From: a virus
Taxonomy: Duplodnaviria > Heunggongvirae > Uroviricota > Caudoviricetes
Virus record (IMG/VR): IMGVR_UViG_2724679238_000012
Span: 1-27,285 of that record
Strand: one strand, 5' to 3'
DNA length: 27,285 nt
A program made the position numbers and the translations under genes. Every line of letters begins with the position of its first letter. The first letter of the stretch is position 1. This document shows positions 9,051 through 23,348 of the stretch, in pieces. The notes beneath the pieces are model-generated. The model searched no databases. It worked only from the letters and a program-made list of their open reading frames with translations, and was not told where the DNA came from.

Positions 9051-12000
9051 CTATATTTTTCCGCCTACGCCTTTAAACTTCTCAATAAACGAGACGATTT
9101 TCTGGAAAACTGCCTGTTTTTTCGTTTTATATTGCGGATTTAACGGACTAAGTTTTGGTAATGTTTCGTTTAATTCTGTGCCATTTTCGGTGGCATATTC
9201 GCGTTTTAAAGACGTGCGAATATAGCGTTTTGCTGCCTCTTCATTGAGATTTTCTTCTTTTATCAATGCTTCTGCTTCACGTTGCTGTTCGCGTTGAGCA
9301 AACGTAAAGAATGCGTCAATGATGCTGGCTTTGTCCGGTAAATCATCCAGGTTCGTTTGCTGAATAAAATCGACCACCAGGCCCTCTTTAGCACGGTTCC
9401 CTAGGCTTGAACGAATTAAGCGTTTGACCTCTTCGATCATTTCGCCCTTGCCTTTATTTTGTCTGTTGTGTTCGAAAATCAGTCCAAGGATATAATCCAG
9501 GTTTATTTCCTGAGACTTCAGCAAATCGACCTCAAAAACTACGTCATCCCAGTCAGTGGTTGATTTCTCTTTTTTCTCAGCTTCTTTCTCACGGCGCTGC
9601 CAGTCGCGAATATCGTTATAGGCAGAACGATAATCCTGAATCTTGCGATCAGCAGGGAGACGAATTGTTTGCAATTCAGCGAACTTTTCATCATCCACAT
9701 AATGTTCTGCTTTGAATTTTTCTACCGCAACAGGATCGCTAAGATCGATTTGTTGCAGGGCTTTTAGCGTGGCAAATTCATCATAGTTTTGCAGGATGTT
9801 CTCGGCACGCAGGTATTCGCCAAACAGTTTAACGAAGTCTTTCTTCTCTTTTTCACTTTCAATACTGGTAGGGTCAGGGAACCGTTGTTCCAGTTCTGAA
9901 ACTACTGTCATGAAGCCGCGTTTAGCTTCACCAGTAGCAGCATCAGTAAAGCCTTCCATATACTCTGTATAACTCTTTTCTAACACCACATTTTTGGTGT
10001 TTTTGTCACCAAACAGCGTTATGGCATCAATAGTTGAGCGTTCCAGATCCCGAAAAGTGACGATATTACCGAAGGTTTTAGTTGCATCATAAATACGGTT
10101 GGTGCGGGAAAATGCCTGCATCAGGCCGTGAAAACGCAAGTTTTTATCGACGAATAGCGTGTTCAATGTTGGAGCGTCGAAGCCGGTTAAAAACATCCCA
10201 ACGACAATTAACAGATCGATATCCTGATTTTTAACCCGTTGGGCTAAATCACGATAGTAGTTCTGAAAACCGTTACTGTCGGTGCTAAAGTTAGTTTTAA
10301 AATGGCTGTTATATTCACGAATTGCAGCGTCCAGAAACTCTTTAGCACTGCTGTCCATTGCGCTGGTATCAAAAGTTTCATCGGAAATTTCACCAATGGC
10401 ATTTTGTTCTTCATTGGCGGCAAAGGAGAAGATTGTCGCAATACGCAGCGGTTTATAGGTAGCCGATTTATTAGCGGCTTCTTCTTGTAACCGTTTAAAC
10501 GTCGCATAATAGGCTTTCGCGGCATCCACGCTGCTCACTGCCAACATAGCATTAAAACCTTTTGAGCCAGGGAAGGTACGATGGGTTTTCTGGCGGAAAT
10601 TATTCAGAATATATTGCGTGATTTCCTGAATACGCATGGGATGAAGAAACGCCTGCTGATTTTCAGCCGCACTCAGTTTTTTCTCGTCAGTTTCTGTCTC
10701 TAAAGACTTAAACTGTGGCCGCACATCGTTGTAGTCCACCTTGAATTTGAGCACTTTTTCGTCACGAATCGCATCGGTAATTACATACGAATGCAATTCA
10801 CGACCAAATACGCTGGCGGTTGTTTCTGAGCCTAAGGCGTTTTCCGGGAAAATAGGGGTGCCGGTAAAACCAAACTGATAATAGCGTTTGAATTTCTTCT
10901 TCAGGTTTTTCTGAGCTTCTCCAAACTGGCTGCGGTGGCATTCATCAAATATAAACACCACTTGCTGATTATATACAGGCAGGTCGCTTTCTGCTTTCAT
11001 CAGGTTATTGAGTTTCTGAATAGTAGTGACGATAATTTTGTTATCGTCCTTATCCAGATTTCGTTTAAGGCCTGCGGTATTTTCCGAGCCGTTGACGCTG
11101 TCTGGCGAAAAACGCTGATATTCCTTCATGGTCTGGTAATCGAGGTCTTTCCTGTCGACCACAAAGAAAACTTTATCAATAAAGTCCAGTTCTGTTGCCA
11201 GACGCGCGGCTTTAAAGCTGGTCAGGGTTTTACCGGAACCCGTGGTGTGCCAGATATACCCACCGCTTTCCGGTTTTGACCAGTTCTTCGCTGTAAAGGA
11301 GCTCTTAATTTTCCACAGAATGCGCTCGGTGGCGGCAATCTGGTACGGTCGCATCACCAGTAGCGTCTGACTACTGTCAAAAACGCTGTAGTTCACCAGA
11401 ACATTCAGCAGAGTATGTTTCTGGAAAAAGGTAGCGGTAAAGTCTTTGAGGTCTTTAATCAGCGTGTTGTCTGATTTCGCCCAATTCATGGTGAAGTCAA
11501 AACTGTTTTTATCGCGCTTTGTCGTGTTGGCAAAATAACGGGTATCGGTGCCGTTAGAAATGACAAACAGTTGCAGATACTTAAACAGGGAATTTTCGCT
11601 GTTAAAACTCTCTTTACTGTAACGATGTATCTGGTTGAAAGCCTCACGAATCGCCACCCCGCGTTTTTTTAGTTCGATTTGCACCAGCGGTAAACCATTA
11701 ACCAGGATCGTGACGTCATAACGGTTAGCATGAGAACCCGTCTGTTCAAACTGCTGGATAATCTGCACCTTATTGCGCATGAGATTCTTTTTATCTATCA
11801 AATAGATGTTCTCAAGTCGCTCGTCATCAAAAATAAAGTCGCAAATATAGTCGATATGGATTTTACGGGTCTTATCCAGAATGCCATCGCTCGGGTTGTC
11901 CAGATACTGCTCCGTGAAACGCCGCCACTCGCTGTCATTAAACACCACACCATTGAGGCTCTGAAGCTGTTGTCGAACATTGGCCAGCATCGCCGACTGA

Positions 12001-12212
12001 GATTTTACGGATATAAATTCATAGCCCTGATTTCGCAGGTCCTGAATCAGTTCCTGTTCCAGGTCCGATTCGCTCTGGTAGCTGTCGCCTGTTGGCTCAG
12101 CTTTGATGTACTTATCAAGGACGATAAAGTTATTGGATTCAGCAATGGTGTGTGTTTGATGAGTCATAGCGCATCCTTTGTGCCGTCTGGCAAGGGCCGG
12201 AAGTTCCGGCAC
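9051..12212 (-). CDS. hsdR: Type I restriction enzyme R subunit (HsdR), helicase/endonuclease
   Basis: 1053-aa ORF with Walker A HTTGSGKT and DEAD/DECH box FIFDECH; size and position after hsdM-hsdS. Confidence 0.9.
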
Positions 12213-12273
12213 TTAAAAAATAGTCTATATACAGACCGGATGTTAAGGTGGCCCGGTCGGTAGCAATGGTCAA

Positions 12274-13509
12274 TTAATTACTGACAGTATCAGGTTTCGG
12301 GAAACTGAACAGTAAATCACGATAGTACTCGTATTGTTTCTGGCGCAACTCGATTTCACGCGGGAGCCCCTCGGTGATGGAGTTGGTCAGAGTATCGAAT
12401 TTGTCGAGTATTTCGACAATGCGAGCTTGCCAGGTGAGTGGCGGTACAGGGATTGGGTATTTTATTATATCCTCTTTACTGCCACGCGGCATTTTTGCTC
12501 CTTTAGCATGCTGCATGTTGTATTCAAAGAATTTGTCATCTGCCAAAATATGATATAGATATCTGGTATTTATTGAGCTATCTATACAACGAATAACCAA
12601 TACATCACCATTTGTTCCACCGATACAATCTGCTTGCCAAATTTTTTTCAAATATGGGCGGATATTCCCAATCAGTATATCGTTAGGTATAAACTCTGTT
12701 AATTTACCTGATGTCGGCACATGATTAGATAATGATTTTCCTGCTCTGTTTTGCAGCAGATTATCTACGCCAACATAATTCCTTTTATCAAGTAGTTCGA
12801 AACTAATTTTTGTTTTCGAGTATTGAGCTGCTTCTCCCAAAGTTTTCCACTCAACCTCGCCCTCTTTAAAACTCAACAACTGCTCGCGATAGTAGTTGTA
12901 CTGTTTTTTACGCATGTTAAGCTCTGCTGTCAGCTCTGCTGTCAGGGCGCTGAATGTGTCCAGAATCCGAACGATTTCAGACTGAATGGCAAGGGATTTT
13001 TCCGGATTTTCCGGACAGGGGATAGGGATAATAATTTTCGCCATATCCGATGCAGACACATCAATTACTTTAGTTCCCTTGGAGTATTTCCTTTTCTCAT
13101 TTGCAAAAGAATCCGTTTGCGTGAAATAGGCAAAGTATTTCCCAATAATAGTGCTATTTGGCTTGAAAATAGTTGCATGGCCACCAGTAACAGCTTGCTC
13201 TTTACCTAGATAAACAAGCGCCTTACCAACATCAGTAAAATTTTCGCTTGTGTTAGTAATAACAACATCACCAGAGTTAACCTTTTTAAGCTTCTTCGCC
13301 GTTTCATGGGAAACAAATGACTTTGTTGTTTCAGTAGATAATCCGTAAAAAGTATATATCTGACCATAGTGTATGGCAGGAACCCCTGATTCGGTAAAAT
13401 CAGACTTAGGCAATCCATTTCCACGAACTAATTCACCTAGTTTCCCCAATGGCAACCACTCAACCTCAACCCCATCCGGCAATTTTTCCAGATAACTCAA
13501 CTCGCTCAT
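12274..13509 (-). CDS. hsdS: Type I restriction-modification specificity subunit (HsdS), two target-recognition domains
   Basis: 411-aa ORF; conserved central and C-terminal repeats ([24 protein letters not shown] and [20 protein letters not shown]); ATGA overlap with hsdM. Confidence 0.85.
12921..12944. repeat. Two tandem copies of a 12-bp repeat (gctctgctgtca) encoding TAEL-TAEL in the HsdS central conserved region
   Basis: Seen directly in sequence and in the HsdS translation; the EcoR124I/II family is known to differ by copy number of this repeat. Confidence 0.8.
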
Positions 13510-15068
13510 TTCGGCACCTCGCAGCCTTCAATTTCAGCCACAATCGCATCAATATCTTTACGCAACTGGTCGATTTTGCTGACCGTGGTTTTCAGTTCTG
13601 CATTCAACTCAGCGATATCGATAATTTCGCGAGTATCTTTCGCTTCCACATAGCTGCTCACCGACAGGTTATAGTCATTAGCGACAACAGCCTCAAACGT
13701 GACAGATTTTGCCAGATGAGCAACATCTTCCTTGCTGGAAAATACCTGCATAATTTTTTCGATATGGGCATCGGTCAGGATGTTGTTGTTAGTCTCTTTT
13801 TTGAACAGTTCGCTGGCGTCAATAAACTGAACGTTGGTATCCGTTTTATGTTTAGACAGCACCAGAATATTTACGGCAATGGTGGTGCCAAAGAACAGGT
13901 TCGGTGCCAGTGAAATCACGGTTTCGACATAGTTATTGTCGACCAGATACTGACGGATTTTCTGCTCTGCGCCGCCACGGTAAAAAATACCCGGGAAGCA
14001 GACAATCGCAGCACGACCTTTGGCCGAAAGATAGTTCAGCGCATGTAATACAAACGCAAAGTCAGCTTTGGATTTGGGGGCCAGAACGCCAGCTGGGGCA
14101 AAACGCTCATCGTTAATCAGCGTCGGGTCATCGCTGCCAATCCATTTCACCGAATACGGCGGGTTAGAGACGATGGCATCAAACGGTTTTTCATCTCTGA
14201 AGTGCGGTTCAGTCAGCGTATTGCCCAGCTTGATATCAAACTTGTCGTAGTTGATGTTGTGCAAAAACATGTTCATACGTGCCAGGTTATAGGTCGTATG
14301 GTTGATTTCCTGTCCGAAAAAGCCTTCTTCAATGATATGGTTATCAAACTGCTTTTTAGCCTGCAACAACAGCGAACCGGAACCCGCGGCCGGGTCGTAG
14401 ATTTTGTTAACGTGGGTCTGCCCGTGCATAGCCAGTTGTGCAATCAGCTTGGAGACGTGCTGCGGTGTAAAGAACTCACCGCCTGACTTACCGGCATTTG
14501 CCGCATAGTTAGAAATCAGGAACTCATAGGCATCACCGAACAGGTCAATCTGATGTTCATTGAAGTCACCAAGGTTTAACCCTTCGACCCCTTTCAGAAC
14601 CGCAGCCAGGCGGGCATTTTTATCCTTAACGGTGTTACCCAGGCGGTTACTGGTTGTATCAAAATCAGCAAACAAACCTTTGATGTCAGCTTCTGAAGGG
14701 TAACCGTAAGCAGAGCTTTCGATAGCAACGAAGATACTATTTAAATCTGCATTCAGTCTGTCATTGGTATTTGCTTTCGCCGCTACGTTGCAGAAAAGCT
14801 GACTGGGGTAGATGAAGTAGCCTTTGGTTCTGATGGCATCGTCTTTAATGTCATCAGTAATAATGCCGTCATCAAGTGCCGCATAACAGATGCTGTCATC
14901 ACCATTTTCCATATAACTGGAAAAATTTTCGCTGATAAAACGGTAGAAAAGTGCGCCCAGAACGTATTGCTTAAAATCCCATCCATCGACCGAACCCCTG
15001 ACATCGTTAGCAATTTGCCAGATTTGACGATGAAGCTCTGCACGTTGTTGAATACTTGTCATTTTCAT
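13506..15068 (-). CDS. hsdM: Type I RM N6-adenine DNA methyltransferase subunit (HsdM)
   Basis: 520-aa ORF; motif [11 protein letters not shown] and motif IV NPPY (NPPYSVKW). Confidence 0.9.
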
Positions 15069-15244: not shown

Positions 15245-15466
15245 ATGCAATCCATTAACTTCCGTACCGCGCGCGGCAACCTTTCTGAAGTGCTCAACAA
15301 TGTTGAGGCCGGGGAAGAGGTTGAAATCACCCGCAGAGGCCGTGAGCCAGCAGTAATTGTCAGCAAGGCTACTTTCGAAGCCTACAAAAAAGCGGCGCTG
15401 GATGCTGAATTTGCATCCCTGTTTGACACCCTGGACTCCACCAACAAGGAACTGGTTAACCGATAA
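15245..15466 (+). CDS. phd: Phd antitoxin (prevent host death)
   Basis: 73-aa product [41 protein letters not shown]... recognised as P1 Phd; stop overlaps doc start. Confidence 0.95.
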
Positions 15467-15846
15467 TGAGGCATATATCACCGGAAGAACTTATTGCGCT
15501 TCATGATGCGAATATAAACCGCTACGGCGGCCTGCCGGGAATGTCAGATCCGGGTAGGGCAGAGGCCATTATCGGGAGAGTTCAGGCCAGAGTTGCCTAC
15601 GAAGAGATCACCGACCTTTTCGAAGTCTCCGCCACCTACCTGGTGGCTACAGCGAGAGGGCATATATTCAATGATGCCAATAAGCGTACCGCGCTAAACA
15701 GTGCGCTGTTATTTCTACGCCGTAACGGGGTGCAGGTATTTGATTCACCTGAACTGGCAGACCTTACCGTAGGGGCTGCGACCGGAGAGATATCTGTATC
15801 TTCTGTCGCCGACACGTTACGTAGATTGTATGGTTCCGCGGAGTAG
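15466..15846 (+). CDS. doc: Doc toxin (death on curing; Fic-fold kinase)
   Basis: 126-aa product recognised as P1 Doc; immediately follows phd with overlapping stop/start. Confidence 0.95.
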
Positions 15847-16057: not shown

Positions 16058-17101
16058 GTGAAAGCCGTAATTACTCCCTTTGTACAAAAAGAGCTTGGCC
16101 TCGCCACGTTCAAAGTGGATCAGGAGGTCAGAAAGCTGGTGGAGGCTGGCCGTAAATTTATTATGGAGCCGGTGCCGCGTGAGTTAATCGAGCACATGGA
16201 AGACGGCCTCGTTATTACCGAGCAAACCATGGCAACAAATGAGGCGTTGCAGCCGTTTTTTAACAGCGATGAACTGTTTCGCCGTATTGGTGGAATTGAC
16301 GCGCTGGTGGCGTGGTTGCGTAGGAAAGAGGGTCAATGCCAGGCCGCAGATCGTAGTTGGTGTGACAACCATATTGTCCACGCTGAACGAGACAATAGCG
16401 CGGTGTTGTTGTGCTGGCATCACGATAACCATTACCGGATGCGTGGTTTTAATGAGCTGAAAGAAACGCTGCACAATAATCGCGTTAACTGGATACTGGA
16501 TGTCGCCCGTCAGGAAATGGGCCTTTCAAATAGCCATGATTTAAGTATTCAGGAGCTGTGCTGGTGGGCTTTCATGCGCAACATGATGCACCTGATGCCA
16601 GAAGAAGTCTGCCGCATATCAATAAATAAGATGAAGGCTACTCCGCAGGATAGCGGACCTCTGAAAGAGGCGGATATTCGCCCGTATGACGATCGCGCTA
16701 CAGCATATGTTCAGATGATGGAAGAACGCGCCGCGCCGATGCGTGCAAAAGTATGCCCTGTGGATGTTGACTCCGACCCAGGTATGGCGCATTTCAAAAT
16801 ACCAAAACTTCAATCGCTAAAATTGCCCGAGTACATGGACTTTGTGGCTTCCCGTCCATGCTGTGGGTGTGGAGCTGCGGGAGCTGGCGCTCACATTACG
16901 CCTTATATCGTTCGTCATAGTCGATTATGCGCGCATGACATTTATGCTATTCCTCTGTGCCAGTCATGCCAGCGTGATATTGAGCGTGACCGCGATAATT
17001 GGGAGAAGACGCACGGTAGGCTGGCGATGCATCAACGATTGTTCTTTGATTACGCGCTTGGAGTCGGCGCTATCACAAGTCACTCGTCGAGCGTTAGATA
17101 A
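16058..17101 (+). CDS. Cys-rich hypothetical protein (position of P1 pdcB; identity unverified)
   Basis: 347-aa ORF with GTG start; C-terminal CCGCG...LCAHD...CQSCQ cysteine cluster. Confidence 0.55.
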
Positions 17102-17189
17102 AATTGCCCTAATGTATTGCCATTTCTTTAATTGAGGGTATTATATTCCACGTTGATTAGTTGACATGGGCTAATCAGTAGGTGACAGG

Positions 17190-17657
17190 ATGTTACTTAA
17201 CTGGCAGGGACGCCACTTCATGGAAATAAATCACTCACGAATAACATCGTACGAGATTGCGGATTACATGATCCGCACTAAATCTCTTCTATCAGCGAAA
17301 GAACTCGCAGCAATTCTTGAAAAGGAATACCCGCATCTGGATGTCGATAAGCGCGATGTTTATCTGCGCTTAAAGGCTATCGCTGTGTCTAAGCATTCGT
17401 CTGTTTTGATTGATGACAGTACACGCCCACGTAGATTTCAGATCCACTCTCTGAATCCTGAATTCTTTCGCCGCAGCCGCGCTCCGCGCCGGTTTGATGA
17501 AAAACTCCAGAACGAACTCTATATGACGCAGGACGAAAAGGAACGCCGGGAGCACCAGCCTTGGGTGATGGCGCGTCAACTTTTCAATAAGGTGGTCCGT
17601 CAGCACCGTCATTACCCAGTGCGCCGTAAAGCCCCTTCCTTCCGGTCGGGGATATAA
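17190..17657 (+). CDS. lpa: Probable Lpa (late promoter activator) by position; start may be the Met at 17220
   Basis: 155-aa basic protein between the pdc genes and pacA as in the P1 gene order; a weak C1-operator-like site (aaattgccctaatgtattg) lies upstream at about 17103-17119. Sequence identity to Lpa not verifiable from memory. Confidence 0.45.
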   Translation: MLLNWQGRHFMEINHSRITSYEIADYMIRTKSLLSAKELAAILEKEYPHLDVDKRDVYLRLKAIAVSKHSSVLIDDSTRPRRFQIHSLNPEFFRRSRAPRRFDEKLQNELYMTQDEKERREHQPWVMARQLFNKVVRQHRHYPVRRKAPSFRSGI

Positions 17658-17659
17658 GG

Positions 17660-18960
17660 CGCGGTTTTCCACCTGGCTTTTTTTGTTTAAAATAGTGGGA
17701 TGAAACGACTACAAGCATTTAAATTCCAGTTAAGACCAGGTGGTCAACAGGAGCGTCAAATGAGGCGCTTTGCCGGAGCTTGTCGTTTCGTTTTCAATCG
17801 TGCCCTGGCACTTCAGAATGAGAATCATGAAGCCGGGAACAAATATATTCATTATGCAAAGATGACTTCCTGGCTGGTTGAATGGAAAAATGCTACTGAA
17901 ACGCAATGGCTTAAAGATTCGCCATCACAGCCATTGCAACAGTCACTGAAAGACCTTGAGCGGGCTTACAAAAACTTCTTCCAGAATCGGGCTGCTTTTC
18001 CCCGATTCAAAAAGCGGGGACAGAATGATGCATTCCGCTACCCGCAGGGCGTTAAGCTCGATCAGGAAAACAGCCGTATTTTTCTGCCGAAACTTGGCTG
18101 GATGCGCTACCGGAACAGCCGTCAAGTCACGGGCGTTGTGAAAAATGTCACGGTCAGCCAGTCCTGCGGTAAGTGGTACATCAGTATTCAGACAGAAAGT
18201 GAAGTATCAACTCCGGTTCACCCTTCAGCATCAATGGTCGGGCTGGATGCTGGCGTGGCTAAACTCGCCACGCTGTCAGATGGCACAGTCTTTGAGCCTG
18301 TAAACAGTTTTCAGAAAAACCAGAAGACGCTGGCGAGACTTCAGCGGCAGTTAAGCCGCAAGGTCAAATTCAGCAATAACTGGCAGAAGCAGAAACGCAA
18401 AATACAGCGACTGCATTTCCGTATCGCAAATATCCGCAGGGACTACCTTCACAAAGTCACAACGACCGTCAGCAAAAACCACGCAATGATTGTCATTGAG
18501 GATTTGAAGGTTAAAAACATGGCAAAGTCAGCAGCGGGTACGGTCAGCCAGCCGGGGCGCAATGTCCGGACAAAATCAGGTTTAAACCGTTCGATACTGG
18601 ATCAGGGCTGGTATGAAATGCGCCGCCAGCTTGAGTACAAGCAGCTCTGGCGTGGCGGTCAGGTACTGGCTGTTCCGCCAGCGTACACAAGCCAGCGTTG
18701 CGCGTGCTGTGGTCATACAGCGAAAGAAAATCGCCTGTCACAAAGTAAATTCAGATGCCAGGTATGTGGATATACAGCGAACGCCGATGTAAATGGCGCT
18801 CGTAACATTTTAGCGGCGGGGCACGCCGTACTTGCCTGTAGAGGGATGGTGCAGTCAGGCCGCCCGTTGAAGCAGGAACCAGACGCTGAGCAATCAGCCG
18901 TCACCCGCTAATGGGAATCCCCCTCCTGAGTCACGAAGTGCGACGGTGGGGGAGGATGTC
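17660..18960 (+). mobile_element. Probable IS200/IS605-family element remnant carrying tnpB only (no tnpA), with imperfect hairpin just 3' of tnpB
   Basis: No HuH/Y1 transposase ORF adjacent; imperfect inverted repeat atccccctcct...ggtgggggaggat at 18917-18957 immediately after the tnpB stop. Boundaries are approximate. Confidence 0.4.
17700..18911 (+). CDS. tnpB: IS200/IS605-family TnpB (OrfB) RNA-guided nuclease-like protein
   Basis: 403-aa ORF; Ruv[17 protein letters not shown], Ruv[14 protein letters not shown], zinc finger CACCGH...CQVCGY, Ruv[14 protein letters not shown]; resembles E. coli IS609-type InsQ. Confidence 0.85.
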
Positions 18961-18976
18961 AAGAAAGGAAGCATAA

Positions 18977-20170
18977 GTGACCTGGGACGATCACAAGAAG
19001 AATTTTGCTCGCCTGGCGCGAGATGGTGGTTACACCATCGCACAATATGCCGCCGAGTTTAATCTCAACCCAAACACCGCACGTCGTTATCTCCGTGCCT
19101 TCAAAGAAGACACCAGGACTGCGGACAGCCGCAAGCCAAATAAGCCAGTCAGGAAGCCACTAAAAAGCATGATCATTGATCACTCTAATGATCAACATGC
19201 AGGTGATCATATTGCGGCTGAAATAGCGGAAAAACAAAGAGTTAATGCCGTTGTCAGTGCCGCAGTCGAGAATGCGAAGCGCCAAAATAAGCGCATAAAT
19301 GATCGTTCAGATGATCATGACGTGATCACCCGCGCCCACCGGACCTTACGTGATCGCCTGGAACGCGACACCCTGGATGATGATGGTGAACGCTTTGAAT
19401 TCGAAGCTGGCGATTACCTGATAGATAACGTTGAAGCGCGGAAGGCCGCGCGCGCTATGTTGCGTCGGTCCGGGGCCGATGTTCTGGAAACCACTCTTCT
19501 TGAAAAGTCTCTTTCTCATCTCCTTATGCTGGAGAACGCCAGGGATACGTGTATTCGCCTGGTGCAGGAAATGCGCGATCAGCAAAAAGACGATGATGAA
19601 GGTACTCCGCCTGAATACCGTATCGCGAGCATGCTAAACAGCTGTTCCGCGCAGATAAGCAGCCTGATCAACACCATTTACAGCATCCGGAATAACTATC
19701 GAAAAGAAAGCCGGGAGGCGGAAAAGCACGCTTTGTCTATGGGGCAAGCTGGCATTGTTAAGCTGGCATACGAACGAAAGCGTGAAAATAACTGGTCAGT
19801 GCTGGAAGCAGCTGAATTCATCGAGGCGCATGGCGGGAAAGTGCCGCCCCTGATGCTGGAGCAAATCAAAGCCGATCTGCGTGCTCCTAAGACCAATACC
19901 GATGATGAGGAAAACCAAACAGCATCTGGCGCTCCATCACTTGAAGATCTGGATAAAATCGCGCGAGAACGGGCCGCCAGCCGCCGCGCTGATGCCGCAT
20001 TGTGGATTGAGCAACGTAGAGAAGAAATTGCCGATATCGTCGATACAGGTGGTTATGGTGATGTCGATGCGGAAGGCATATCAAACGAAGCATGGCTTGA
20101 ACAGGATCTGGACGAAGACGAGGAGGAAGACGAAGAAGTTACCCGCAAACTGTACGGGGATGATGATTAA
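18977..20170 (+). CDS. pacA: PacA, terminase small subunit (pac-recognition component)
   Basis: 397-aa product with GTG start; contains the pac site; size and sequence consistent with P1 PacA. Confidence 0.9.
19168..19330. other. pac packaging site: 4 + 3 clustered TGATCA-type hexamers (7 GATC Dam sites) flanking the cleavage region
   Basis: GATC at 19171, 19178, 19190, 19205 and at 19301, 19313, 19324, all in TGATCA/TGATCG context, inside pacA. Confidence 0.85.
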
Positions 20171-21654
20171 TGGCCAGAAGTTGCGTAACGGACCCACGTT
20201 GGCGCGAGCTGGTGGCGCTATATCGTTATGACTGGATTGCGGCCGCTGATGTGTTGTTTGGGAAGACACCAACCTGGCAGCAGGATGAGATCATTGAGTC
20301 CACGCAGCAGGACGGCAGTTGGACAAGTGTGACCTCCGGCCATGGTACTGGTAAGTCGGATATGACGAGTATCATTGCAATACTCTTCATCATGTTTTTC
20401 CCCGGCGCTCGCGTTATTCTGGTCGCTAACAAAAGACAGCAAGTCCTTGATGGTATTTTCAAATACATAAAGAGCAATTGGGCTACTGCTGTTAGCAGAT
20501 TCCCGTGGTTGTCGAAGTATTTCATTCTTACAGAAACGTCTTTTTTTGAGGTGACTGGCAAGGGTGTTTGGACAATATTGATAAAGTCCTGTCGCCCCGG
20601 AAATGAGGAGGCGTTGGCTGGTGAACACGCCGATCATCTCTTGTATATCATCGACGAAGCGTCGGGTGTGAGTGATAAAGCATTCAGTGTGATAACAGGT
20701 GCGCTGACCGGTAAGGATAACCGTATTCTGCTTCTTTCCCAGCCTACGCGACCTTCAGGCTATTTCTACGATTCACACCACAGACTAGCTATTCGCCCGG
20801 GAAATCCTGATGGATTGTTTACTGCGATAATACTGAATAGTGAAGAATCTCCGCTTGTAGATGCAAAATTTATACGAGCAAAACTTGCGGAGTATGGCGG
20901 TCGTGATAACCCCATGTACATGATCAAAGTACGTGGTGAATTTCCCAAATCTCAAGATGGCTTTCTTCTTGGTCGTGATGAGGTTGAGCGGGCGACGCGG
21001 CGAAAGGTCAAGATTGCCAAAGGATGGGGCTGGGTTGCATGTGTTGACGTTGCTGGTGGCACAGGACGAGATAAGTCCGTTATTAATATCATGATGGTGT
21101 CCGGCCAGCGAAATAAACGCCGTGTAATCAACTATCGTATGCTGGAATACACAGACGTTACAGAAACGCAGTTAGCCGCCAAGATTTTCGCAGAATGTAA
21201 CCCAGAACGGTTCCCGAACATAACCATAGCTATTGATGGCGATGGCTTAGGGAAATCGACGGCTGATCTGATGTACGAACGCTATGGTATTACCGTCCAG
21301 CGTATCCGCTGGGGGAAAAAGATGCACAGCCGTGAAGATAAAAGCCTTTATTTCGATATGCGCGCTTTCGCGAATATTCAGGCGGCAGAAGCTGTAAAAT
21401 CAGGGCGTATGCGGCTTGATAAGGGGGCTGCGACTATAGAGGAAGCATCAAAGATACCGGTAGGGATAAATTCCGCAGGTCAATGGAAGGTGATGTCAAA
21501 GGAAGATATGAAGAAAAAACTCAACCTGCACTCACCGGACCATTGGGATACATATTGTTTCGCTATGTTGGCGAACTATGTTCCCCAAGATGAAGTGCTT
21601 AGCGTCGAAGACGAAGCGCAGGTTGATGAAGCTCTGGCATGGCTTAATGAGTGA
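20170..21654 (+). CDS. pacB: PacB, terminase large subunit
   Basis: 494-aa ORF whose ATG overlaps the pacA stop (TAATG); size matches P1 PacB. Confidence 0.9.
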
Positions 21655-22014: not shown

Positions 22015-22236
22015 ATGGCTACTATCCCTACCCCAACTCATCCTGAATTTATCTGGCGCTTTTACTCCTGCCAGAAACGTCACTATCACTTCGTTATCGC
22101 AACAACAGAAGATGAGGCTCGCTCTCAGCTTCCGGATGCTCCCTGCATTTTCTCTGCCCGTTTTTCCACTGATTTGTGCAATTCTCTCAGTTACTGGTGT
22201 CTCCCTGTTAACGCTTCTGCTCAGGAGGGACTATGA
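22015..22236 (+). CDS. 73-aa Icd-like small protein, translationally coupled to ant
   Basis: Strong RBS AAAGGAGG; stop overlaps ant ATG (ATGA); same length and arrangement as P1 icd, but sequence identity not verifiable from memory. Confidence 0.45.
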   Translation: MATIPTPTHPEFIWRFYSCQKRHYHFVIATTEDEARSQLPDAPCIFSARFSTDLCNSLSYWCLPVNASAQEGL

Positions 22237-23348
22237 GAACGTCATTAGTCACCCGTGAAGAGATGATCGAGGCAATTGAACAGCATACCGCCTGTATCAG
22301 TACCAGGGATATACCGGGCGTTATTGCCAACTATTTCATGATCACCAAACAACTTTACCGGAGAAAGGACAAGAACGCGGTTCACCGTATCCTGTTGTCT
22401 GATATCCGCGAATACCTGCTCGAACAGGGGCATCTGAATTACGCAACCATCGCAGCCGAAGCACGCAAGGAGGCACACAGAATGAAAGCAACTAACGTTA
22501 AATCAGAAAAAATTCATGCAACTTCAGTTCAGAAATCGGAGCTGGTGGTTGCTCAAAATCAGCCGGATGAAATTCCCGTTCTGGAGTGGCAGGGGGTGCG
22601 TGTAGTGACAACCGAGACTCTTGCTAAAGGGTATGGGACAGAAACAATCCGTATTCGCCAGAATCATCATGAGAACAAAGTGCGCTTTGTTGAAGGGAAG
22701 CACTTTTTCAAGGTTATTGGCGATGAGCTGAAAAATTTGCGGGTAGCTTTAAACTACTCACAAAATCCAGTCTCACCCAAAGCCCGCTCACTCACTCTCT
22801 GGACAGAACGCGGCGCTGCCCGTCACGCTAAAATGCTCGAAACCGATCAGGCATGGGCATTCTTTGAAAAACTGGAAGACAGCTACTTCCGACAAAAAGA
22901 ACAGCAACCGATCGCAATCCCCCAGACGCTTCCAGAAGCCCTGCGTCTGGCTGCCGAACTGGCTGAACAAAAGCAACTTCTGGAACAGAAAGCCCACCAG
23001 CTAAATCAGCAGCTGGTGGCCGCCGCTCCTAAAGTCGATTTTGCCGACCGGGTATCAGTAGCTAAAGGGATCCTGATTGGGAATTTTGCAAAGGTTGTTG
23101 GACTTAAGCAAAACGCGCTGTTTGCCTGGTTACGGGAGAACGGCATCCTGATAGCGTCCGGTGGACGTAAAAATGTGCCGTTCCAGCAGTACATCAATGC
23201 GGGGTATTTCACGGTGAAAGAAGTGGTGCTGGATGATGAAGATGGCTACCAGATACGGTTGACGCCTCAATTAACGGGTAAAGGCCAGCAGTGGTTGACG
23301 CGTAAACTGCTCGATGCTGGCTTGTTAAAACCGGTGGCGGCTGAATAA
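22233..23348 (+). CDS. ant: Phage antirepressor (Ant-like), ORF6N/Bro-N-type N-terminal region plus KilAC-type C-terminal domain
   Basis: 371-aa ORF; VLEWQGVRVVTTETLAKGYG...NKVRFVEGKHFFKV resembles ORF6N; C-terminal IASGGRKNVPFQQYINAGYFTVKEVVLDDEDGYQIRLTPQLTGKGQQWL typical of KilAC antirepressor domain. Confidence 0.75.
   Translation: MRTSLVTREEMIEAIEQHTACISTRDIPGVIANYFMITKQLYRRKDKNAVHRILLSDIREYLLEQGHLNYATIAAEARKEAHRMKATNVKSEKIHATSVQKSELVVAQNQPDEIPVLEWQGVRVVTTETLAKGYGTETIRIRQNHHENKVRFVEGKHFFKVIGDELKNLRVALNYSQNPVSPKARSLTLWTERGAARHAKMLETDQAWAFFEKLEDSYFRQKEQQPIAIPQTLPEALRLAAELAEQKQLLEQKAHQLNQQLVAAAPKVDFADRVSVAKGILIGNFAKVVGLKQNALFAWLRENGILIASGGRKNVPFQQYINAGYFTVKEVVLDDEDGYQIRLTPQLTGKGQQWLTRKLLDAGLLKPVAAE

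Follow-up and report, generated by a model that had tools for sequence, protein, structure and literature searches.

A tnpB-only element of the IS609 group in place of 98 bp, including the late promoter LPpac, at the lpa-pacA junction of a P1-like phage-plasmid

The DNA stretch analysed here (hereafter the window) comprises the 27,285 nucleotides (nt) of viral record IMGVR_UViG_2724679238_000012 and is part of a P1-like phage-plasmid. It carries a tnpB gene near lpa (late promoter activator) and the terminase gene pacA, and we consider it likely that this gene belongs to a tnpB-only element of the IS609 group, placed after a TTAC tetranucleotide within lpa, with 98 bp of P1 sequence including the late promoter LPpac missing and with its right end touching the ribosome-binding site of pacA. 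We also discuss, as a possible but doubtful reading, a role of the element in RNA-guided homing and exclusion between P1-like phage-plasmids. The features of the element are as follows:

17190-17657, + strand: lpa, 155 amino acids (aa), Pfam BPP1_LPA (E 4.5e-56)
17612-17615, + strand: TTAC, left cleavage/target tetranucleotide C_L, a P1 sequence outside the element and also the expected target-adjacent motif (TAM)
17616-18962, + strand: tnpA-less IS200/IS605 element related to IS609, 1,347 bp
17616-17699, + strand: left end, with guide G_L AAAG at 17628-17631 and hairpin IP_L at 17632-17653 inside a longer GCGCC/GGCGC stem
17666-17693, + strand: sigma-70-like promoter TTTCCA-16-TAAAAT, just upstream of tnpB (promoter scan)
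17700-18911, + strand: tnpB, full length, 403 aa, an RNA-guided RuvC nuclease by homology
18805-18962, + strand: predicted omega RNA scaffold, closing helix ACAUUU (18805-18810) with GGAUGU (18954-18959), inner stems 18813-18829 and 18835-18876, GNRA-capped stem 18885-18898 and right-end stem 18918-18953
18881-18950, + strand: 3' module (C-terminal tail of TnpB and right-end hairpin), different from that of IS609
18915-18962, + strand: right-end recognition set, with G_R GAAT at 18915-18918, IP_R at 18919-18952 (with a T-T mismatch) and C_R TCAA at 18959-18962
18963-18978, + strand: inferred 16-nt guide GAAAGGAAGCATAAGT, in flanking DNA formed by the Shine-Dalgarno region of pacA and the first two bases of its GTG start codon

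In blastn comparisons, homology with P1 (NC_005856) ended at position 17615 of the window and restarted at 18963, and the element was found to stand in place of 98 bp of P1 (NC_005856 90417-90514, corresponding to 817-914 of our P1 locus L001). According to the P1 annotation, this segment comprises the nine final sense codons of lpa and its stop codon, together with the complete LPpac promoter with its -22 box and -10 sequence. The TTAC preceding the element is also present in P1 (L001 813-816), a second TTAC is found at L001 911-914, and each P1 breakpoint lies immediately 3' of one of them. Since TTAC has a frequency of only 0.0034 per position on this strand, a second breakpoint falling exactly after this tetranucleotide is unlikely to be due to chance. 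A repeat search over 17300-19300 gave neither inverted nor direct terminal repeats at 17616/18962, and no target-site duplication was found at the junctions compared with P1. The similarity shared with IS609 and with other copies begins at about 17609-17616, and the right end abuts the ribosome-binding site of pacA. The original prediction, made from the sequence of the window, had placed the insertion at 17660-18976, between lpa and pacA; these borders have to be corrected to 17616-18962, with the left end inside lpa, and the alignment with tnpB-free P1 that it proposed for identification of the empty site revealed a replacement of 98 bp rather than a clean insertion. The lpa gene is P1-like up to 17615, and its final 14 codons (PVRRKAPSFRSGI and the stop) come from the left end of the element; a comparison of the translations showed that this new 14-aa tail of Lpa takes the place of GNATSARI in P1.

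The right end was fixed at 18962 because more than 20 independent copies share the terminus ...GGAGGATGTCAA (or ...TCAC) and are followed by unrelated flanks. In copies from more than 10 different sites, the element begins after TTAT or TTAC and finishes with GTCAA or GTCAC. In IS608, the guide tetranucleotides located 5' of the hairpins set the cleavage sites, with AAAG targeting TTAC, and TCAA lies 10 nt 3' of the foot of the right hairpin (PMC3201880). In the element of the window, the end of TCAA is likewise exactly 10 nt 3' of the foot of the right hairpin, and G_L and C_L covary across copies (AAAG/TTAC here and AAAA/TTAT in the IS609-type copies), as would be the case if the target were determined by the guide tetranucleotide. 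The element shares with IS608 of Helicobacter pylori the C_L TTAC, the G_L AAAG 5' of the left hairpin, the C_R TCAA, the presence of a right guide tetranucleotide and the lack of inverted repeats and target duplication. However, there is no sequence similarity between the two beyond these signals, IS608 carries tnpA, and its distance from C_L to the hairpin is 19 nt rather than the 16 nt observed here. The left and right hairpins of the element are alike (CCCCTTCC/GGTCGGGG vs CCCCCTCC/GGTGGGGG), and the DNA fold of the left end has an energy of -13.2 kcal/mol (z -1.96).

The element therefore displays the absence of repeats and target duplication, the subterminal hairpins with their guides, and the fixed insertion tetranucleotide and right end of IS200/IS605 elements, but not an encoded Y1 HUH TnpA: no tnpA was detected anywhere in the 27-kb window by tblastn with the TnpA of IS609 (best E 7.4), in agreement with the original prediction that none was adjacent. 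The sequence data point to a non-autonomous, tnpB-only derivative of the IS200/IS605 family. Clear ends, which, like a tnpA, had been named as a sign of an ordinary complete insertion sequence, were found, but they delimit a non-autonomous form.

IS609 of Escherichia coli (NZ_CP007394.1 1084631-1086385), which consists of insQ/tnpB and a divergent tnpA, has a tnpB about 96% identical in DNA sequence over 17701-18880, a left end 90% identical over 17609-17675, and the same last 10 nt (AGGATGTCAA) and end architecture. It differs in the presence of tnpA, a gene of about 430 bp that lies between the left end and tnpB, where the window has 25 bp with a TAAAAT box, and in its AAAA/TTAT signals, as opposed to AAAG/TTAC. 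The 3' module is also distinct from position 18881 onwards: the similarity to IS609 and to the element of phage-plasmid RCS47 stops at 18880, whereas an element of the filamentous phage If1 (ORF348, NC_001954 6040-7137) matches 18234-18962 at 96% and has the same 3' module, right end and TCAA. As this module is common to the If1 element and to more distant relatives, but not to IS609, we consider the element to be a mosaic. The If1 element has its own tnpA (46% identical to IS609 TnpA), another left end and a tnpB more divergent in its 5' half. An assignment of the whole element to the If1 type was considered and dropped in favour of the mosaic, the If1-type left end being unlike that of the window. 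In If1 itself (L005/L043, NC_001954 ~5400-7137), this IS200/IS605 element, with a tnpA homologue and ORF348 as tnpB, is annotated as hypothetical proteins.

The tnpA-less layout recurs at many unrelated sites, and among 42 related IMG/VR loci an adjacent tnpA was present only in distant relatives. The solo form therefore predates its arrival in this phage and must be moved in trans, and there is nothing exceptional about a tnpB on its own, this architecture being found in many independent copies. Another, independent tnpA-less IS609-type element in P1-like phage-plasmids is the already annotated solo insQ located between ddrB and ddrA in RCS47, SJ46 and vB_EcoM-813R1, with a tnpB 93-94% identical and the same short spacer with a TAAAAT box between the left end and tnpB. 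However, this element is a clean insertion, in which the empty site of P1 reads TTAT followed directly by GCTGCC and nothing has been lost, it has an IS609-type right end, and it touches no promoter annotated in P1. The ddrB/ddrA tnpB-only element is common in P1-like phage-plasmids (L002 2501-3760 in RCS47; L017-L027, L037, L039, L049 and L050), and the guide derived from its flank would likewise match element-free P1.

The TnpB protein is complete, as originally predicted. All three TnpB domains of Pfam (PF12323, HTH_OrfB_IS605; PF01385, OrfB_IS605; and PF07282, Cas12f1-like_TNB) were identified above cutoff, the NCBIfam guided_TnpB model NF040570 scored 386 bits against a cutoff of 100, and the protein could be aligned end to end with the TnpB structure 8bf8 of ISDra2 (E 4e-53). 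The catalytic triad is in place (D183 in GLDAG, E267 in VIEDL and D363 in NADVNG), these motifs aligning with GVDVG, GTEHL and DRDEN, which hold the catalytic residues of ISDra2 TnpB, and the zinc ribbon is retained (C334-x2-C337 and C353-x2-C356). The ISDra2 TnpB of Deinococcus radiodurans (8bf8, 8exa and 8h1j) has the same triad and zinc ribbon, and its RNA scaffold likewise extends over the 3' end of the gene as far as the right end; the proteins are nonetheless clearly diverged, the scaffold of the present element is a predicted one, and the TAM, TTGAT in ISDra2, is predicted to be TTAC or TTAT for this element. Our literature search for the activity or TAM of IS609/InsQ TnpB, and for TnpB in P1-like phages, yielded nothing specific.

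The ratio of non-synonymous to synonymous differences per site (pN/pS) of tnpB was 0.19 in the comparison with pEA40_1, the most diverged same-locus copy (21 synonymous and 14 non-synonymous differences), and ranged from 0.19 to 0.29 over the same-locus comparisons. The neighbouring genes pdcB, lpa and pacA had values of 0.07-0.15 against pEA40_1; for pacA, values of 0.00-0.13 were also recorded. The open reading frame (ORF) of tnpB is open in all five plasmid copies (5/5), at up to 2.9% divergence, and the gene appears to be under purifying selection. Five mismatches with respect to the otherwise near-identical copies L006-L008 are clustered within 32 bp (window 18491-18522; TnpB K272 and A275), and this cluster probably arose by a short gene-conversion event with another tnpB copy as donor.

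The expectation that a guide RNA would derive from the 3' end of tnpB and the right end of the element agrees with the outcome of an RNAalifold analysis of the aligned last 220 nt of 19 distinct relatives. It predicted 44 pairs, six of which had compensatory double changes; 97.6% of the cells were paired, as opposed to 35-49% when the partners were slid by 1-3 columns, and the covariation score was reached by none of 500 shuffles. The ACAUUU of the closing helix, which lies within the coding region, is invariant even among copies with a TnpB matching that of the window at only 62%, and both types of 3' module have a GNRA-capped stem at the same place, with different sequences. The hairpin noted in the original prediction at 18917-18957 as a candidate right-end structure corresponds to the subterminal hairpin at 18919-18952. 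The covariation, which is the basis of this assignment, suggests that the 3'-end RNA is structurally conserved, consistent with an omega RNA.

As in TnpB systems that have been characterised, the guide of this RNA would be the first ~16 nt of the flank, GAAAGGAAGCATAAGT. This sequence is identical to P1 L001 915-930, where it is preceded by the TTAC at 911-914, and P1 carries TTAC and an exact 20-nt match; within the window the guide sequence matches nowhere else, and at its own locus the right end (GTCAA), and not a TAM, lies directly before the matching DNA. Domain architecture, the D-E-D triad and a structured 3' RNA, that is, all the testable features of a TnpB/omega RNA system, were recovered from the sequence, and TAM-dependent, guide-dependent DNA cleavage is predicted.

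The original prediction suggested that expression of the pac operon may have been rewired. A change in upstream context is indeed observed, but the effect was understated, as an annotated late promoter has been deleted: the Lpa-dependent LPpac (L001 875-893) falls inside the missing 817-914. A late-promoter motif built from the three annotated P1 promoters LPlyz, LPdar and LPpac was absent from 17616-18976, with up to two mismatches allowed, the promoter scan identified no sigma-70-like site from 17694 to pacA, and the interval from tnpB to pacA also lacked terminator-like sites. It follows that pacAB is probably read through from upstream, and the transcription would start at the retained C1-controlled lpa promoter and/or at the promoter-like site of the element (17666-17693). 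The pacA gene retains its Shine-Dalgarno sequence and GTG start directly after the element. More speculatively, TnpB might process such transcripts into omega RNA, with a cut in or near the ribosome-binding site of pacA.

The only match to the late-promoter motif in the window, with one mismatch, is located at 1273-1291 on the - strand (AAGTGACTG-N4-TAACCT) and is a candidate late promoter, the mean number expected by chance also being 1.0. Within the lost 98 bp, a short GC hairpin with TTTT behind it lies between the lpa stop codon and LPpac of P1 (L001 851-872, GCCCGTTCCGGGCCTTTT); it was considered as a weak lpa terminator, but it fails the terminator criteria of the scan and we make no claim for it. 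In assembly GCA_025720475.1 (L053), which encodes an identical TnpB, a nonsense change truncates PacA at residue 381 of 397 (equivalent to window position 20120), with loss of its acidic tail.

The allele with identical junctions was found in five P1-like plasmids of Escherichia albertii, of avian and human origin (Poland and the USA), and on three NCBI contigs encoding an identical TnpB. Searches of the phage collection, of 5,426 complete E. coli genomes, and of IMG/VR, metagenome and GTDB contigs did not detect it. The tnpB gene is absent at this position from reference P1, from P7 and from the other P1 records, in accordance with the original prediction for P1. Of 606 P1-like PLSDB plasmids, 556 covered 80% or more of a 291-bp P1 query spanning the 98 bp. 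This count of intact sites is based on query coverage and not on a reading of the individual lpa-pacA joints. The stretch is 95-100% identical to P1 in these 556 plasmids, and 99-100% identical in the element-free E. albertii plasmids (H113 and H124). Two F-type plasmids with partial empty-site matches contained IS26-truncated fragments and were considered irrelevant. The allele is rare in these collections, and its identical junctions point to a single origin.

One of the plasmids, p06-3542 (L008), is nearly identical to the window only over 17484-19119, that is, over the element with 132 bp to its left and 157 bp to its right, and is diverged outside this patch. Its flanks are closest (98.4-98.7%) to those of element-free plasmids, and in one of these, NZ_CP100503.1, a distance of 387 bp separates the two flanks, in keeping with an empty site. 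The patch resembles a short gene-conversion tract begun at the insertion site and is suggestive of homing. TnpB proteins of the IS200/IS605 family are known to cut the empty site, and repair then restores the element. In the mechanism that we propose, TnpA supplied in trans would have put the element into a P1-like phage-plasmid, and the element would produce an omega RNA with the guide described above. TnpB and its omega RNA would be unable to cut their own locus, because the TAM is replaced there by the right end, but would cut element-free P1-like genomes at TTAC and the identical pacA-start sequence; repair from an element-bearing copy would follow, leading to retention or homing. If the element were such a homing and exclusion device, which we propose only tentatively, wild-type P1-like genomes that enter a carrier cell, or already reside in it, would be cut in an essential gene for DNA packaging. 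Such a genome would then be lost or be converted by repair to the tnpB-bearing allele lacking LPpac, and the patch in p06-3542 (element and ~130-160 bp on each side) would be the footprint of such a conversion.

Two routes could account for the loss of the 98 bp. In the first, the element would have been inserted at the upstream TTAC, and TnpA would then have cleaved the right end (TCAA) and the downstream TTAC, the latter recognised by the left-end guide, with joining of TCAA to GAAAGG and release of a 98-nt circle. The chemistry of this route is that of normal excision and integration (PMC3201880). In the second, related elements present at both TTACs would have recombined within their 96%-identical tnpB, an event that would account for the mosaic 3' module as well. 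An intermediate allele, with the element and the intact 98 bp, would be recognised by the diagnostic junctions AGAGTTTTTAC-CCAGTGCGCC and GGATGTCAA-GGTAATGCCAC.

Several observations weigh against these interpretations. No such intermediate was detected in the collections examined, which included the 5,426 E. coli genomes and IMG/VR, metagenome and GTDB contigs, and the origin of the deletion is a matter of inference only. Compared with IS609, the left-end hairpin is weakened by two internal mismatches, and the element may be poorly mobile as a result. An Rfam scan of 16500-20000 returned no family match (E <= 1), and the single-sequence fold of 18800-18982 was not significant in comparison with shuffled sequences (z -0.84). 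Gene conversion from other copies in the genome may account for part of the low pN/pS. The closest relatives sit after TTAT rather than TTAC, and the cutting of TTAC-flanked P1 is an unproven prediction. The homing-like patch is a single case among freely recombining phages, and pacA has a nonsense codon on one contig.

Some of these observations would also be expected of an inert relic, a dead and immobile insertion sequence fragment with an idle tnpB and RNA, for which the promoter deletion would be the sole biological effect. The lack of tnpA in the window, a left-end hairpin weaker than that of IS609, the lack of an Rfam match and the occurrence of this exact variant at one locus only are all in line with it. 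Nevertheless, a decaying relic is disfavoured by the low pN/pS, close to that of the neighbouring phage genes, and by an ORF that is open in five plasmid copies despite their divergence. The catalytic and zinc-binding residues are intact, the RNA pairs are maintained by compensatory changes, and the left and right hairpins are alike, as expected of a working pair of ends. We therefore regard a relic as rather unlikely.

We consider it improbable that TnpB has been domesticated to serve the phage, either as a TldR-like RNA-guided regulator of the pac operon or as a weapon against competing P1-like phages, and is maintained by the phage and not as a selfish transposon. The guide region coincides with the translation start of pacA, the native promoter has been replaced, so tnpB and pacAB are likely to be co-transcribed, tnpB appears to be under purifying selection at a fixed locus, and P1 and P7 have an intact copy of the predicted target, with the highly conserved stretch of the 556 plasmids also fitting this scenario. 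However, the TldR repressors known to date are nuclease-dead TnpB-like proteins, whereas the triad, the zinc ribbon and the 403-aa length are all intact here, and self-binding is not expected with GTCAA in place of a TAM before the guide-matching DNA. The tnpB-only layout and the ends are, moreover, those of a mobile element present at many sites, and ordinary TnpB homing would itself affect competitors, with no need for domestication.

Finally, a simple insertion into an ancestor already lacking the 98 bp, in which lpa ran straight into the pacA start and nothing was deleted, is very improbable: the direct joint would read CAT TAC GAA AGG AAG CAT AAG TGA, with a stop codon overlapping the pacA GTG in a plausible coupling, but this joint (CGTCATTACGAAAGGAAGCATAAGTG; lpa joined to GAAAGGAAGC) was not found in IMG/VR, the 98 bp are part of the query covered in the 556 plasmids, and the element-free E. 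albertii plasmids carry a stretch almost identical to that of P1. Exact-pattern searches of IMG/VR, metagenome and GTDB contigs for the direct joint, and for the left and right junctions, returned no match.

The remainder of the window has the following gene order around the element, with c1 and cre further downstream:

15466-15846: doc
16058-17101: pdcB/DUF968
17190-17657: lpa
17700-18911: the 403-aa ORF (tnpB)
18977-20170, + strand: pacA, terminase gene
20170-21654, + strand: pacB, terminase gene

The first ~800 bp of pacB (window 20200-21000, its 5' half) differ by ~25-30% from three of four sibling plasmids (L003, L006 and L008), in a comparison in which pacA is 97-99% identical, which suggests that the N-terminal part of PacB has undergone allelic replacement. 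An antirepressor gene (ORF6N and KilAC/ANT domains; 22233-23348, + strand), preceded by a small ORF, lies between pacB and c1, whereas on the P1 map c1 follows pacB directly; in related plasmids, an Icd-like gene precedes the ORF6N and KilAC/ANT antirepressor. Just upstream of phd/doc, the window has a complete type I restriction-modification system (9051-15068, - strand; hsdR, 1053 aa; hsdS, 411 aa; hsdM, 520 aa), in a region presumably occupied in P1 by the type III EcoP1I res/mod genes.

The element is of an ordinary kind, tnpB-only IS200/IS605 elements and their guide RNAs being well characterised, but its placement is unusual, in that it truncates lpa, removes LPpac, leaves pacAB behind tnpB and has a guide that matches laboratory P1. 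In this natural allele, the Lpa-dependent late promoter of the terminase genes is precisely gone and the C-terminus of Lpa is altered, yet the allele has persisted and diversified in E. albertii, and it provides a natural test of the dependence of P1 packaging on LPpac. The two TTAC-bounded breakpoints constitute a candidate footprint of an adjacent deletion made by TnpA or of recombination between two elements. Because laboratory P1 contains the predicted target, E. coli and P1 would offer a tractable system for the study of TnpB homing between phages.

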